From assembly GCA_947632375.1 (NCBI GenBank), contig CANRPF010000006.1, positions 1 through 52,965 of the forward strand: a stretch of DNA of 52,965 nt, read 5' to 3'. The stretch comes from an uncultured Bacilli bacterium. Its GTDB lineage: Bacteria; Bacillota_I; Bacilli_A; RF39; UBA660. A program made the position numbers and the translations under genes. Every line of letters starts with the position of its first letter. The stretch's first letter is position 1. The notes beneath the pieces are model-generated. The model was not told the origin of the DNA and did not search any database. It worked only from the letters and a program-made list of their open reading frames with translations. This document shows positions 1 to 52,965 of the stretch, piece after piece.

Positions 1-1781
1 CCCACAGAGGACGGCGGGTCAGAGATGCCAGAACAAAATACTCCAGCAAAAGTGGATCGTCCCCAATCCCCACCAAAATTACCATAACACACAGCGCTGT
101 TATTAAACCAAAATCCGTCCGCCTCGTATGTAGATGATGTACCATACCCCTTAACTGGCACTCTCCCCCAAGGCGTTACCTTCATTGTGCTTATATAACT
201 TGCTGTTACTGCCGACTGCCCAGAAGGTGTCGATTCTTGTAATGTGATATAACCGGTTCCGTCAAGGTTATAGCCAGATGTAGAACTTCCATCATGAGTC
301 CCCCATGTCAGTTTGACTTTCTGGGTACCGTGATAATCAATCCATCCGGCTGTCCGTCGCCACAGATTACCCCATGGGTTCTCCATGCCGAAGACCTTGA
401 CGCCAGATACTTGGTCATTGCTCCCCCAGAATAGCCCTTTCTTATCCATCGTCCCTTGGCCAATAGCACCATTATTTCCTGTGCGACAGTATCCTGCACC
501 ATATTTGATTTGAGTATTGGTAGACTTAGCCATCAAAACCAAAAGATCCTGAACCAAGAATTTATCAGCAACTACTTCTATGTAGTACCCATCACCATTA
601 GCCTTTGCTAAATTGATTTGTGCTGTTGTATCAGTATTCACGTAATTTGTCCTCCCGGAAATAGTCCGTAGCCTTGTCCCATCCGACGAACCAAAATATA
701 TAGGTGTGTAAAAGTGATCTATTTGGTTATCATCCTGGTCATAGTTGCACCAGCAATCAAAACCATCCAGACCTATATCACAACACCTGAATTTATATGT
801 ATCTTCCGTTTCCTCGCGGCTCGTGAAAATCTTGCCCCATTGCATCATAGCATTGCCTGCGAAATTTATATCTGCCACGCTGGAAGACTGCCCATCTATC
901 TTTTTGGTGTAGTCATTTGGATCTAGCTCTTCCATAACTACACCCGCATAAGATACCATCGTCGGTTTAGGCATAAACTTTTCGCCTGGTGCAAAATCCC
1001 AGCCCCCGTAAACAAATTTACCTCCGGCAAAATCCATATAGGCAGGCGCAAAATCAGTATTATCTACACCTGTAGGATAGGACACCCTGGCATCAGGGTC
1101 GGGCTCAGAGGAGATTAAATCAAATCCGTAATAATACTCAGATTTTAGTTCAATTTCTTCTCCCTTTTCAGATATATTAACTGTTTTTCCACCTATATCC
1201 CATTCACCAACATCATCTAATTCAAGATAAGCACTTAAATCTTCTCCAATAGTAACTTGAACATTTTTACTACCTTTTTTAGCTGTTATTGTTTTACCAA
1301 TAACCTCAGATGCTTTAAATGTTATTACTATTTTAGCATTATCATTTGGTGTTACACTAGCTCTATACGACTTATCCCTATTATAAACATCATGGTCTGA
1401 ATAGGAATAAGCCGCATAGTAATATGTTATATCATTTTTACAAATATCTTCATAAGCTGTAGTTTTATATTTACTAAAATCTTCTCTAGGAAGATTCAAA
1501 GCTACAACTGCTTCGTTATCATTTTCATTTATTGGATAACTACCCTCTTTTCTCAAAAGTAGCACCCCAGCAGCTCGACAGAGTTCTTGACCATCAATAA
1601 CAGTATCATTAGGGCCTTCAATATAAATTCTATTCTTACCATTTGAAGGAGTAACCCTAAATAACTTAGGTGGTAAAGGCGGAATTCCAACCTCATTTCC
1701 TCCATTACCTCCGGTTCCCGCGTTTTTAATTAGCTTGCCAACTTCATCTATCGTATACTGCGCAGCTACAAAATCACTCAT
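1..1781 (-). CDS. Tail fibre / receptor-binding protein (partial; the stop codon lies beyond the window start)
   Basis: Uninterrupted minus-strand frame from the ATG at 1781-1779 to the window edge, about 590 codons. The ATG overlaps the TGA of the upstream gene. Gly/Ser/Thr/Asn/Tyr/Trp-rich composition typical of fibre proteins. Last gene of a minus-strand operon with a repeat-containing fibre-like protein. Absent from the ORF track only because no stop is reached inside the window. Confidence 0.55.
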   Translation of the reverse strand, partial: MSDFVAAQYTIDEVGKLIKNAGTGGNGGNEVGIPPLPPKLFRVTPSNGKNRIYIEGPNDTVIDGQELCRAAGVLLLRKEGSYPINENDNEAVVALNLPREDFSKYKTTAYEDICKNDITYYYAAYSYSDHDVYNRDKSYRASVTPNDNAKIVITFKASEVIGKTITAKKGSKNVQVTIGEDLSAYLELDDVGEWDIGGKTVNISEKGEEIELKSEYYYGFDLISSEPDPDARVSYPTGVDNTDFAPAYMDFAGGKFVYGGWDFAPGEKFMPKPTMVSYAGVVMEELDPNDYTKKIDGQSSSVADINFAGNAMMQWGKIFTSREETEDTYKFRCCDIGLDGFDCWCNYDQDDNQIDHFYTPIYFGSSDGTRLRTISGRTNYVNTDTTAQINLAKANGDGYYIEVVADKFLVQDLLVLMAKSTNTQIKYGAGYCRTGNNGAIGQGTMDKKGLFWGSNDQVSGVKVFGMENPWGNLWRRTAGWIDYHGTQKVKLTWGTHDGSSTSGYNLDGTGYITLQESTPSGQSAVTASYISTMKVTPWGRVPVKGYGTSSTYEADGFWFNNSAVCYGNFGGDWGRSTFAGVFCSGISDPPSSV

Positions 1782-2214
1782 GTTCTATCTCATATGCCTC
1801 CGTTATTTTCTTATTACCAGACTCGTCTTGTGGTTCTATCGTAGTAGTTTTAACGTAGGTAACACCGTTACCATTTTTATGTTGTATTCTCTCTGTAATT
1901 ATTTCTGCACCTTCTACATCTAAGGTCATTTGCTTTGTTGTTGTCACAATAGCATCTTCTGTTTCAGTCACAATAGTTCCATCCTCTTGGAAAGTTGTAA
2001 CTTGATTTACTAAACCATAACGTTTTTGAAAGTTTATTTCTTCTTGCTCTTGCATATAGGTCTGCATAGCCTTATTTTGTTCGTCTAAATATTCTTTCAA
2101 CGTTTGATTTTTTGTACCTTCTGCACTACTATATTTATAATAAATAGCTGCTACGTGAGAAATAGCAAAACCTTTGACACCATTTAATTTCAACCATAAC
2201 TTATTTGTTGCCAT
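1774..2214 (-). CDS. Hypothetical virion or tail-associated protein
   Basis: 146 aa ORF translationally coupled to the fibre gene (ATGA overlap). Lies in the minus-strand tail-fibre operon. Confidence 0.45.
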   Translation of the reverse strand: MATNKLWLKLNGVKGFAISHVAAIYYKYSSAEGTKNQTLKEYLDEQNKAMQTYMQEQEEINFQKRYGLVNQVTTFQEDGTIVTETEDAIVTTTKQMTLDVEGAEIITERIQHKNGNGVTYVKTTTIEPQDESGNKKITEAYEIEHE

Positions 2215-2221
2215 TTATTAC

Positions 2222-2701
2222 TCACGCCCCGTCCTCAGTTACTGTAGTTTTTATAATAAGAGTTGGTTCTTCAACAGTAATAGATAGCGCGTCAATTTTA
2301 GCTTTTGTATCATTTACTTTTTTAGCAAATTCTTCAGCTAACTTTTCTTCAGTTACAGCACCATCTTTTATCTTTTCAGTTGTAACTGAATCATTAGCTA
2401 GCTCATTCTCGCCAACTTCGCCATCTTTTATTTTATCTCCAGTAATTGCATCATTTTGTATCTTGCTTTCAGTTACCGAATTTTCTGCTAACCTACTTTC
2501 AGTGACTGCACTATCTTTTATTTTACTTTCAGTTATAGAATCTTCAGCTAACTTTTCTTCAGTTACAGCACCATCTTTTATCTTTTCAGTTGTAACTGAA
2601 TCATTAGCTAACTTTTGTGTGGTTACTGCCTCATCTTTCAACTCTCTAGTTCCAACTGAATTAGGGCCAAGAGGAATAACACTTCCGTAAAAACTTGCCA
2701 T
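2222..2701 (-). CDS. Tail-fibre-like protein with hendecapeptide tandem repeats (SVTTEKIKDGAVTEEKLAEDS-type)
   Basis: 159 aa with about eight 11-residue repeats (xAVTxxKIKDGxVTxxKLAxxS), as seen in N-terminal stalks of phage fibre proteins. The DNA shows a 33-nt periodicity plus a 70-bp exact duplication. The plus-strand ORF 2205-2690 is its shadow. Confidence 0.5.
   Translation of the reverse strand: MASFYGSVIPLGPNSVGTRELKDEAVTTQKLANDSVTTEKIKDGAVTEEKLAEDSITESKIKDSAVTESRLAENSVTESKIQNDAITGDKIKDGEVGENELANDSVTTEKIKDGAVTEEKLAEEFAKKVNDTKAKIDALSITVEEPTLIIKTTVTEDGA
2351..2610. repeat. 70-bp exact direct repeat (2351-2420 and 2541-2610) embedded in a 33-nt periodic tandem repeat array
   Basis: tcttcagctaacttttcttcagttacagcaccatcttttatcttttcagttgtaactgaatcattagcta occurs twice. 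Encodes the duplicated ANDSVTTEKIKDGAVTEEKLAE block of the fibre-like protein (minus strand). Confidence 0.8.
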
Positions 2702-2715
2702 TTTATTATATCTCC

Positions 2716-2994
2716 TTAATATACAAAGTCAACAATGGCTTTCGTTGTCTCCTTAAACTTTAAACTTGTTATAGGAACAATACAATCTAATTCATAAACA
2801 CCAGTCTTACCTATTGTAATTTCTTGGTCATTTAATATTATTACCGTTCCTTCAGGAGCTTGAATGCCAATTTTTAGTAAAGTAGGTCTTTCACTGTCGT
2901 ATTTCTTAGTTTTTTCCCTAATTTCATTATCTAACAAGTCTTTGTCTTTGTCAAAAGAACCAGATACCTGTCCAACACGTCCATTCAAAATCAT
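2716..2994 (-). CDS. Hypothetical protein, first gene of the minus-strand fibre operon
   Basis: 92 aa ORF immediately downstream (minus sense) of the divergent promoter region 2995-3121. Confidence 0.4.
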   Translation of the reverse strand: MILNGRVGQVSGSFDKDKDLLDNEIREKTKKYDSERPTLLKIGIQAPEGTVIILNDQEITIGKTGVYELDCIVPITSLKFKETTKAIVDFVY

Positions 2995-52148: not shown

Positions 52149-52155
52149 ATGAATC

Positions 52156-52184
52156 TTGACAATATAAAAAATTTTTGATATAAT
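52156..52184 (+). promoter_or_regulatory. Promoter TTGACA-17-TGaTATAAT for the resolvase gene
   Basis: Consensus hexamers. RBS aaggagg before ATG 52215. Confidence 0.6.
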
Positions 52185-52214
52185 CTAGGTATAAGTAAGG
52201 AGGAATTTAGTTAT

Positions 52215-52712
52215 ATGAATATATTAGCAATAGATGCAAGTACAAAAAGCAGTGGATGGGCTGTCTTTGAGGATACTAGATTACTAGATTATGGATGTAT
52301 ACAGTCGGCATCCGCAGATTTAATTAAACGTATCTATATCATGAAAGATGGAATTGAAAAAATATTAAATAAATATAAAATTGATAAAATTATATTAGAA
52401 GAAGTAAGACCAGAACAGGGCCTACAAAATTTAAAAACACATAAAGCATTATTATACCTTCAGGCTGCTATTGCTTTTTTAGTGCATGAAAAATTTAATA
52501 AGATAAATATAGAATATGTTTACCCTAATGAATGGCGTAAGGCTTGTGGGATTAAGACCGGAAGAGGAGTTAGACGAGAAAGTCTAAAACCTTTAGATAT
52601 AGCTTTTGTGAAAAATACTTATAATATTATTGTTAATGATGATGTAGCAGATGCAATAGGAATAGGACATGCCTATGTTAATACTATTAACAATGAAATA
52701 AATTGGGAATAA
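52215..52712 (+). CDS. RuvC-family Holliday-junction resolvase (phage-type)
   Basis: LAIDASTKSSGWAVFED (catalytic Asp loop). C-terminal DVADAIGIGHAY. Confidence 0.75.
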   Translation: MNILAIDASTKSSGWAVFEDTRLLDYGCIQSASADLIKRIYIMKDGIEKILNKYKIDKIILEEVRPEQGLQNLKTHKALLYLQAAIAFLVHEKFNKINIEYVYPNEWRKACGIKTGRGVRRESLKPLDIAFVKNTYNIIVNDDVADAIGIGHAYVNTINNEINWE

Positions 52713-52745
52713 AAAAGAGGGAGCCTTTTAGGCTCCCTTTAATTT
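52709..52745. terminator. Bidirectional intrinsic terminator between convergent genes
   Basis: A-tract, agggagcc-tttta-ggctccct stem, T-tract. Serves plus-strand gene 52215-52712 and minus-strand gene 52728-52965. Confidence 0.65.
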
Positions 52746-52965
52746 GTTAAATACCTTATTTGTTATTTGTATAATCTCTTCTCCATAGGTTGCAATTAAA
52801 TCTGCTAACAGTTCTTCTTGTTCGAGTGTTAAATCTATATTATATGAAAACATAGCTGCATGGGTAAGTTCATGGCAAAGAACTTTCTTAAAAAATAACC
52901 CTCTTAACTGATTATTTATATAAATAGTTTTTGTATTATCATCACAAGTAGCAATAGACAAAGAA
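52728..52965 (-). CDS. ImmA/IrrE-family (DUF955) zinc metallopeptidase, 3' part; the gene continues beyond the window end
   Basis: HEXXH motif in VLCHELTHAAM. Minus strand, convergent with the resolvase gene across a bidirectional terminator. The frame is still open at the window edge. Confidence 0.45.
   Translation of the reverse strand, partial: SLSIATCDDNTKTIYINNQLRGLFFKKVLCHELTHAAMFSYNIDLTLEQEELLADLIATYGEEIIQITNKVFNKLKGA

Follow-up and report, generated by a model that had tools for sequence, protein, structure and literature searches.

The 52,965-bp window analysed here (the whole stretch of contig CANRPF010000006.1 under study) belongs to a phage genome of ~135 kb. Its first ~3 kb hold minus-strand tail genes, and the remainder constitutes an early and replication module on the plus strand. 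The module encodes GyrB, GyrA, an ATP-dependent DNA ligase, a Sak4-like annealing protein, a DnaB-like helicase and a primase, together with a RecJ-like exonuclease, a Dda-like helicase, the PolIII-alpha polymerase DnaE, NrdD/NrdG, a dUTPase and RuvC; also present are a set of RNA-repair genes and three genes for homing endonucleases, all three free-standing. Genes were called as plain longest open reading frames, a few short ones within the first 1.8 kb being spurious. Neither tRNAs nor Rfam families were found in the window, no deposited phage gave a close DNA match to it, and an exact-protein look-up of its RuvC-like protein returned nothing on record. The G+C content is 32.0%, where a first-pass annotation made from the sequence had given 30%, and the CpG observed/expected ratio is 0.59. 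That annotation had drawn attention to patches of GC-ending codons and to repeated copies of the palindrome CCGCGG. The subject of this report is a shorter word, the tetramer CCGC with its complement GCGG (CCGC/GCGG), which is strongly over-represented in the window and its relatives.

Against within-gene synonymous-codon shuffles, CCGC appeared as the most deviant 4-mer of the window (84 copies vs 31.8 expected, z = 12.9); the enrichment over such shuffles was put at 3.3x for CCGC and at 1.5–2.0x for GCGG. Coding sequences contain 163 copies of the two words where 81 are expected, and the intergenic DNA, at 28% G+C, reaches a density of 3.5 per kb. The enrichment is found within each of the three codon phases (CCGC 2.7–5.2x, GCGG 1.7–3.3x). 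When 27 clade genomes were pooled and all 256 tetramers compared, CCGC was the most enriched (3.16x) and GCGG the second (1.95x), while in 72 kb of clade intergenic DNA the pair exceeded base composition by 6.0x and a second-order Markov expectation by 2.0x, above every other G/C-only tetramer, CCGG standing there at 0.25–0.5x. The proposal that the signal lies at the DNA level is thus borne out by its survival of synonymous shuffling, its occurrence in all three codon phases and its presence in intergenic DNA. A check for strand skew showed a symmetric excess, with absolute values on the coding strand of 22 pooled relatives of +518 for CCGC and +527 for GCGG. Among CpG contexts only CCGC/GCGG is enriched, since CpGs with a single G/C flank gave 0.8–0.9x, GCGC 1.0x and CCGG 0.55x; the lack of enrichment in the single-flank contexts and in GCGC indicates that this is not a graded GC-context effect. 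Near-variant tetramers stayed close to or below expectation (TCGC 0.80, CTGC 0.91, CCAC 0.80, GCAG 0.94), and the values for CTGC and GCAG lead us to reject the excess as a by-product of avoiding GCWGC or CTGC. Immediately before GCGG, A is disfavoured (0.19 vs 0.38 in the background).

The DnaE of the window shares ~40% identity with its counterparts in the Enterococcus VRE9/EF1 phages and in Bacillus SPbeta. A scan based on this protein recovered 80 relatives in IMG/VR, at 56–78% identity and on contigs of up to 165 kb, and a further 12 in collections of metagenome-assembled genomes (MAGs). The closest is L085, a contig of 139.6 kb (CANQQR010000001.1) that comes from a bin labelled 'Bacilli' from rabbit gut and has a DnaE identity of 82%. 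CCGC/GCGG was enriched at least 1.5x in 88 of 89 clade loci (DnaE 62–82% identical), with a median of 2.4x, and the sole unenriched locus (1.13x) was the most divergent one, L078 (IMGVR_UViG_3300021387_002356), whose DnaE identity is 56%. The comparators SPbeta, Enterococcus phage VRE9_4, Staphylococcus phage K and T4 showed no enrichment (0.95–1.2x), the SPbeta stretch taking in the homologous yorG–yorL replication module. CCGC/GCGG is a heritable signature of a clade of SPbeta-like phages of ~100–165 kb that encode DnaE and were recovered from metagenomes of gut and rumen. The first-pass annotation had named two outcomes that would speak against its signal, namely the loss of enrichment once codon usage is controlled and the presence of the same patches in unrelated AT-rich phages. 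Neither was found, as the k-mer excess persists against the codon-shuffled null and the four unrelated AT-rich phages lack it. Together with the per-phase analysis and the intergenic counts, these results reject an artefact of amino-acid composition or codon usage.

The palindrome CCGCGG does occur nine times, as had been counted, with eight of the nine coordinates shifted by 1–11 bp from those given before; being palindromic, its sites are listed once and strand-neutral in Table 1. The two codon phases described for it were recovered, six copies reading xxC CGC GGx and three xCC GCG Gxx. Regarding the longer words said to recur, GCGCGGGAACTGG is indeed present twice (35092 and 38923) and GGTTCCCGC in four copies, while CCGCGGTT was found four times instead of five, CCGCGGT being the word that occurs five times. 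The over-representation of the hexamer holds against base and codon nulls, dinucleotide shuffles predicting 0.43 copies and 500 synonymous-codon shuffles within genes 0.94, with none of the latter reaching nine, but it does not extend beyond the hexamer's own penta- and tetramers, for which a maximal-order Markov model expects 12.2 copies. The same type of model leaves a clear excess at the level of the tetramers (CCGC 84 vs 41.8, GCGG 95 vs 55.9, CGCG 64 vs 36). Since its sub-words predict its count and the excess sits at CCGC/GCGG, CCGCGG is a derivative, and the palindromic hexamer is ruled out as the unit.

A second arrangement of the word, GCGG-N3-CCGC, had gone unnoticed in the first-pass annotation. 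It occurs nine times in the window, vs 0.02 expected from dinucleotide shuffles and 1.2 from synonymous shuffles, and the clade loci contain 112–133 copies, depending on the locus set, where ~5 are expected. The 120 fully flanked copies represent 53 independent positions, at which the spacer often changes and the halves stay. In the 27 genomes, 43 copies were counted vs 1.7 expected, and a phase-aware null showed that all close spacings of GCGG followed by CCGC are enriched (N0 15x, N3 25x, N4 17x, N6 11x). Direct repeats and the inverse orientation amount to the product of the single-site enrichments, and the GCGG...CCGC orientation alone keeps an extra factor of 2.6x overall and of ~4x at N3. 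Because all short spacings are enriched, a unique fixed-spacing operator is rejected; GCGG...CCGC is a preferred dyad arrangement, with GCGG-N3-CCGC as the strongest member of a graded series. Variants of the composite site with a single mismatch show a symmetric enrichment too.

Conservation of the sites was followed in eight independent close-relative pairs, in the comparison of the window with L085 and in a 65-sequence DnaE codon alignment. In the close pairs, synonymous G/C third positions were conserved in 82.9% of cases inside CCGC/GCGG, vs 63.0% in other all-G/C tetramers, 62.1% in other CpGs and 71.0% at the remaining positions, and 4-fold G/C sites in 83.1% of cases within the motif vs 61.0% elsewhere. 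Transitions had altered 12.7% of the 4-fold motif sites and transversions 4.2%, compared with 29.4% and 9.6% elsewhere, so that both classes are cut ~2.3x and the transition/transversion (ts/tv) ratio hardly moves (3.04 vs 3.07). The equal suppression of both classes points to purifying selection on the whole word, and the overall pattern argues against generic protection through duplex stability, against simple decay of 5-methylcytosine and against very-short-patch repair specific to deamination. The earlier suggestion that GC context protects locally from mutation is rejected as well, because other G/C-rich contexts lose synonymous G/C more quickly than the average. In the comparison of the window with L085, motif G/C third positions were kept in 59.6% of cases vs 19.3% for the others (p = 5e-13), and 29 of 43 aligned motif sites of the window survive. 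In the DnaE alignment most CCGC/GCGG positions turn over and some persist. One Cys-Arg-Gly stretch is written TGC CGC GG, hence CCGCGG, in 28 of 65 sequences and TGT AGA GG in most others, the former persisting despite its rare codons and the synonymous divergence of the adjoining codons. As far as aligned sequences can tell, these data point to purifying selection acting on the DNA itself and not on protein or translation.

The patches put forward in the first-pass annotation are real runs of G/C-ending codons, though less widespread than the 'nearly every gene' then claimed. Patches with at least six GC-ending codons in eight number 41 vs 18.5 in shuffles, and they were found in 19 of 45 genes, where 10 are expected. 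They measure 15–60 bp, and among CpG contexts CCGC/GCGG alone is enriched, at variance with CpG islands of the vertebrate type, which extend over hundreds of bp with CpG at expectation whatever its context. Clustering of codons with G or C at the third position (GC3) is short-range, with a lag-1 ratio of 1.28 (z = 8.4) that fades after ~4 codons. About 42% of the patches carry CCGC/GCGG, and masking the motif codons removes ~40% of the GC3 adjacency excess, leaving a residual of 1.13x; in the densest patch, in DnaB, conservation towards L085 is limited to the motif-bearing codons. We believe it probable that the GC-rich islands and the CCGCGG palindromes are overlaps and local clusters of the single word CCGC/GCGG. 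The statement that patches often sit at conserved catalytic motifs found no backing in the DnaE alignment, where the GC3 of Ala/Gly/Pro/Arg codons is lower at conserved columns (0.14 vs 0.18), that of all codons is barely higher (odds ratio 1.17), and mean protein conservation is 0.754 at motif sites vs 0.758 over all codons. Conversely, the word appears to have left a mark on the proteins. Ala-x-x-Ala contexts permitting the motif number 11, ~3x a rough hand estimate of 3–4 from amino-acid frequencies, eight of these 11 use the rare GCG codon, and GCGGCNGCCGC (four Ala; AAAA patches) lies in variable regions of DnaE. Judged from these sequences, selection for CCGC/GCGG would be strong enough to shape protein sequence.

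Table 1. Positions of CCGC/GCGG, of its composites and of the densest GC-codon patch in the window
Feature	Position	Strand	Context
CCGC (84) and GCGG (95), 179 sites	1..52965	.	Genome-wide, 3.4 per kb
CCGCGG	4573..4578	.	Phase xCC GCG Gxx; overlaps the GCGG-N3-CCGC site at 4566
CCGCGG	12704..12709	.	Phase xxC CGC GGx
CCGCGG	17170..17175	.	xxC CGC GGT TTT
CCGCGG	18811..18816	.	PhoH/PIN gene
CCGCGG	28194..28199	.	DNA ligase gene, within GCGGGTTCCCGCGG
CCGCGG	35221..35226	.	DnaB, just 5' of the Walker A codons; kept in closest relative L085
CCGCGG	43352..43357	.	DnaE; TCGCGG in L085
CCGCGG	44249..44254	.	DnaE (GGC CGC GGT); kept in L085
CCGCGG	51757..51762	.	dUTPase-like gene
GCGG-N3-CCGC	4566..4576	.	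GCGGCGACCGC; Ala-Ala-Thr-Ala
GCGG-N3-CCGC	5762..5772	.	GCGGATGCCGC; SPFH gene
GCGG-N3-CCGC	6711..6721	.	GCGGGTCCCGC; intergenic
GCGG-N3-CCGC	7581..7591	.	GCGGACACCGC; vault-like gene, codon phase 1
5+1+5 form	7631..7641	.	GCGGCAGCCGC; Ala x4; form common in relatives
GCGG-N3-CCGC	19827..19837	.	GCGGATACCGC; CHAP lysin gene
GCGG-N3-CCGC	20016..20026	.	GCGGTTCCCGC; includes GGTTCCCGC
GCGG-N3-CCGC	35188..35198	.	GCGGTGCCCGC; DnaB; L085 keeps the halves, spacer altered
GCGG-N3-CCGC	37833..37843	.	GCGGCGACCGC; RecJ; L085 keeps the halves, spacer altered
Densest GC-codon patch	35151..35240	+	DnaB; 16 of 30 codons ending in G/C, several overlapping CCGC/GCGG

Several 4–6-mer palindromes of the window behave as avoided restriction sites, whereas CCGC/GCGG and CCGCGG go the opposite way. 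Compared with synonymous shuffles, the window contains far fewer copies of GATC (11 vs 106), ATTAAT (4 vs 55), CAATTG (0 vs 29) and TCTAGA (0 vs 15), as well as of GATATC (0 vs 10), GAATTC (2 vs 13), AAGCTT (3 vs 16) and TCGA (29 vs 70), and Asp is encoded by GAC in 94% of cases before C. CCGG is depleted across the clade. Other profiles are not shared: ATTAAT and CAATTG avoidance is peculiar to the window among the relatives compared, and GATC ranges from 0 vs ~60 expected in five loci to 62 vs 65 in L025. Since avoidance differs between relatives and the CCGC excess does not, the motif must track something more conserved than strain-level restriction systems. Within the window, nine of the 11 surviving GATC sites fall in two clusters, one at 55–923, in the 45%-GC 3' part of a minus-strand tail protein gene, and another at 23815–25964, from the 3' end of gyrB through the 5' end of gyrA. 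These two segments may be recent acquisitions from which GATC has not yet been purged.

On balance, we regard it as rather likely that selection maintains CCGC/GCGG in this phage clade as a word of duplex DNA, and that the word is the recognition site of a putative reader, whose existence, identity and action we infer. Such a factor, common to the clade and encoded either by the phage or by its host group, would read a short site on double-stranded DNA, with two half-sites in the GCGG...CCGC orientation, 0–6 bp apart (3 bp being best), as the preferred composite. Candidate roles would include self-marking or nuclease attenuation, a methylation target and DNA organisation. Several observations weigh against this proposal. 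Four bases would be an unusually small target for a DNA-binding protein, no longer consensus of 5–8 nt emerges around CCGC/GCGG, where flank preferences are weak, and the half-sites show a graded spacing that a rigid dimer would not typically produce. Neither a reader protein nor a gene for a methyltransferase or a Vsr-like enzyme could be identified in the 53 kb window. All relatives were sampled around DnaE (±10 kb), so that genome-wide uniformity is shown for the 53 kb window alone. Motif sites located in slowly diverging mosaic segments could somewhat inflate the conservation contrast, although other G/C-rich contexts behave in the opposite way, which speaks against such inflation. A passive signature of the host group also deserves some weight, if a small one. 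Going one step further, CCGC/GCGG might be a lineage-specific 'self' word, equivalent in phages to Chi, HIP1 or DUS, which a conserved putative protein of the phage or of the host clade would read on duplex DNA in order to spare, organise or mark phage DNA for modification, with selection recoding genes and even inserting Ala-rich patches. We put this fuller version forward tentatively, as a possibility with the odds against it.

The Chi-like, recognition-motif and modification-target options listed in the first-pass annotation all keep some standing, Chi being weakened by strand symmetry and by the missing link to mosaic boundaries, and modification by the failure to find a methyltransferase in the window. 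Chi, the regulator of RecBCD/AddAB that is enriched in phages relying on host recombination, resembles CCGC/GCGG in being a short G-rich word with a frame-independent, DNA-level excess. The Chi sites of Bacillus subtilis (AGCGG) and Staphylococcus aureus (GAAGCGG) share the 3' core GCGG. If the host nuclease AddAB/RexAB were attenuated by GCGG when acting on linear phage DNA, a higher density of the word would be selected for. The codon-controlled excess in every frame and in intergenic DNA and the selective retention of sites are compatible with this model, local clustering of copies would raise the probability of recognition, and conservation of the motif across a clade with differing restriction avoidance is as expected of specificity at the level of host families. 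However, Chi is orientation-dependent and 5–8 nt long, whereas the excess studied here is equal on both strands and yields no consensus of that length. The disfavoured A before GCGG indicates that the motif is not AGCGG, and the preference for GCGG...CCGC is not predicted by a Chi model. A recombination hotspot found no support either, as the 47 mosaic boundaries between relatives lie at a median of 125 bp from the motif, like random positions, in a test of low power. An explanation through Chi activity is in our view unlikely.

In its behaviour, the closest analogue of CCGC/GCGG appears to be the cyanobacterial highly iterated palindrome HIP1 (GCGATCGC). Like HIP1 and the alternate highly iterated palindromes, the phage word is short, GC-rich and hyper-abundant across a clade, and both occur in coding DNA (in all frames in the phage clade) and in intergenic DNA. 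HIP1 is conserved between genomes beyond neutral expectation, which has been read as evidence of selection (PMC5861425), and the phage sites show the same trait (83% vs 61% in the close pairs, 60% vs 19% against L085). HIP1 is an 8-bp palindrome, enriched 15–300x in cellular genomes and tied to cognate orphan methyltransferases (PMC4390886). Unlike it, the phage unit is a non-palindromic 4-mer enriched 2–6x, without a methyltransferase in the window, and its palindromes CCGCGG, GCGG-N3-CCGC and GCGGCCGC are composites of that 4-mer. In HIP-type systems the palindrome itself is the unit, a relation contradicted here by the hexamer count and by the enrichment of other GCGG...CCGC spacings.

The model proposed for HIP1, methylation-linked biased mismatch repair (PMC4390886), can be transferred to the phages by assuming that a CCGC-type cytosine methyltransferase and Vsr-like or HIP-type repair create and protect the sites. 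In its favour, the enrichment is strand-symmetric, frame-independent and clade-wide, the one-mismatch variants of the composite site are enriched symmetrically, and the co-occurrence of HIP sequences with cognate methyltransferases offers a precedent (PMC4390886). The transition-specific suppression that would be expected of Dcm/Vsr-type repair was not observed, given the unchanged ts/tv ratio, so that deamination-specific T:G repair is not supported, and the deamination products TCGC, CTGC and CCAC behave like other A/T-flanked tetramers. No methyltransferase gene was found in the 53 kb window, nor in the DnaE flanks of the relatives except for an m5C (5-methylcytosine) methyltransferase near DnaE in one of ~90 loci, L089, the only one matched by tblastn with SPbeta MtbP and T4 Dam; homologues of the L089 enzyme from viral contigs lay on none of the clade contigs returned by the DnaE scan. 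A clade-conserved methyltransferase is therefore not supported by these searches, and we judge biased repair to be improbable as the source of the word.

A passive origin would require that the phages merely share a tetranucleotide bias of their host group, arising from host replication or repair and without any phage function. The bias is clade-wide and strand-symmetric, and clade contigs have been binned with 'Bacilli' and 'Clostridia' MAGs, as this explanation would have it. Even so, individual sites are conserved and suppress transitions and transversions to the same degree, which indicates selection instead of mutational equilibrium. To judge by their differing restriction-avoidance profiles and MAG labels, the relatives seem to have different hosts, and a twofold excess over a second-order Markov expectation is large for a passive cause. 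We consider this origin quite unlikely.

Amino-acid constraint, or translational clustering of rare codons at Gly/Ala/Arg/Pro-rich catalytic motifs or pause sites, could claim the clustering of GC3 codons, the roughly twofold excess of patches over shuffles and the adjacency left after masking. In that respect the window does resemble genes with rare-codon clusters, but here the effect is largely one of a nucleotide word, which survives synonymous shuffling, extends to all phases and intergenic DNA, is absent from the four AT-rich comparators, and shows no excess at conserved DnaE columns, the Ala/Gly/Pro/Arg codons being reversed. As the main cause this explanation is contradicted and very improbable, although a small residual clustering could stem from it. 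Uptake sequences (DUS/USS) of Neisseria and Pasteurellaceae offer another likeness, as over-represented motifs found inside genes in all frames, affecting local amino acids and forming inverted pairs. They are 10–12 nt long and driven by biased DNA uptake in competent bacteria, and we know of no comparable drive for a phage. Finally, GCGG-N3-CCGC mini-hairpins in RNA or single-stranded DNA, suggested by the complementarity and equal excess of GCGG and CCGC and by a predicted 4-bp stem with a 3-nt loop at eight of nine sites (~-5 kcal/mol), are rejected because the nine folds are no stabler than shuffles (z -1.7 to +0.1), because the inverse CCGC-N3-GCGG, although just as stable, shows no enrichment (1 vs 133 copies in the family), and because one-mismatch variants lack a G-U asymmetry (27 vs 32). 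Generic protection of G/C in locally GC-rich duplex is contradicted as well, since other all-G/C tetramers are neither enriched nor spared from G/C loss. Structural or mutational explanations of these kinds are extremely unlikely.

Several neighbouring features merit mention. TCTTGA (50 vs 21.5), CTTGA and CTTG are over-represented in the window, mostly as xxT CTT GAx, as are CAATAG and CTATTG, and all these words are enriched in relatives as well; the excess of the TCTTGA, CTTGA and CTTG series looks like a codon-context effect. The segment 4967–9736, GC-richer (38–43%) and unusual as phage cargo, encodes an SPFH/flotillin-like protein and, after it, one of 857 aa that contains shoulder and repeat domains of the major vault protein and for which no PHROG match was found. 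Directly after this vault-like gene, GCGGtctaatgaCCGC followed by a T-rich run (9744–9770) looks like an intrinsic terminator whose stem is built from CCGC/GCGG half-sites. An RNA-repair-like cluster (10899–17650) comprises a microbial PARG-like protein, a Thg1-like 3'-5' nucleotidyltransferase, an RNA ligase, a P-loop kinase (AAA_33, PNK-like) and three metallophosphoesterases, and may serve as counter-defence against anticodon nucleases. A 268-aa protein (30535–31341) strongly matches the unknown-function family phrog_6721 and weakly the ThyX (Thy1) Pfam model (E = 9e-4), suggesting a possible divergent pyrimidine-modifying enzyme.

The homing-endonuclease genes lie at 14772–15524, 29563–30522 and 42075–42980; two are HNH-like paralogues and one is of the GIY-YIG type, all free-standing, with one immediately upstream of DnaE. 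Owing to their presence, co-conversion was considered as a source of the patches and discarded, as it cannot explain a genome-wide, clade-wide tetramer. Four relatives (L027, L028, L091 and L093) carry an insertion of ~1.1–1.2 kb within DnaE (match of ~5.0 kb vs 3.9 kb), presumably an intron or intein.

Chi, the FtsK-orienting polar sequences (KOPS), DUS/USS and HIP1 are examples of selectively maintained, hyper-abundant words, each of which has been a pointer to a machine that reads DNA. Searching the literature for an enrichment of CCGCGG or CCGC in phages brought up nothing relevant, and to our knowledge a clade-wide conserved over-represented word has not been described in phages. The case also provides a clean worked example of a striking palindrome count that is an overlap artefact of a shorter word. 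CCGC/GCGG coincides with the AciI restriction site, which makes the motif directly assayable. Lineage-specific restriction-avoidance profiles such as those found here could help to assign hosts to uncultivated phages or to fingerprint the restriction systems that they face. With ~90 natural genomes that carry the motif and the divergent L078 that does not, phylogenetic profiling for a reader gene becomes possible, L078 representing a natural contrast for finding the gene responsible.

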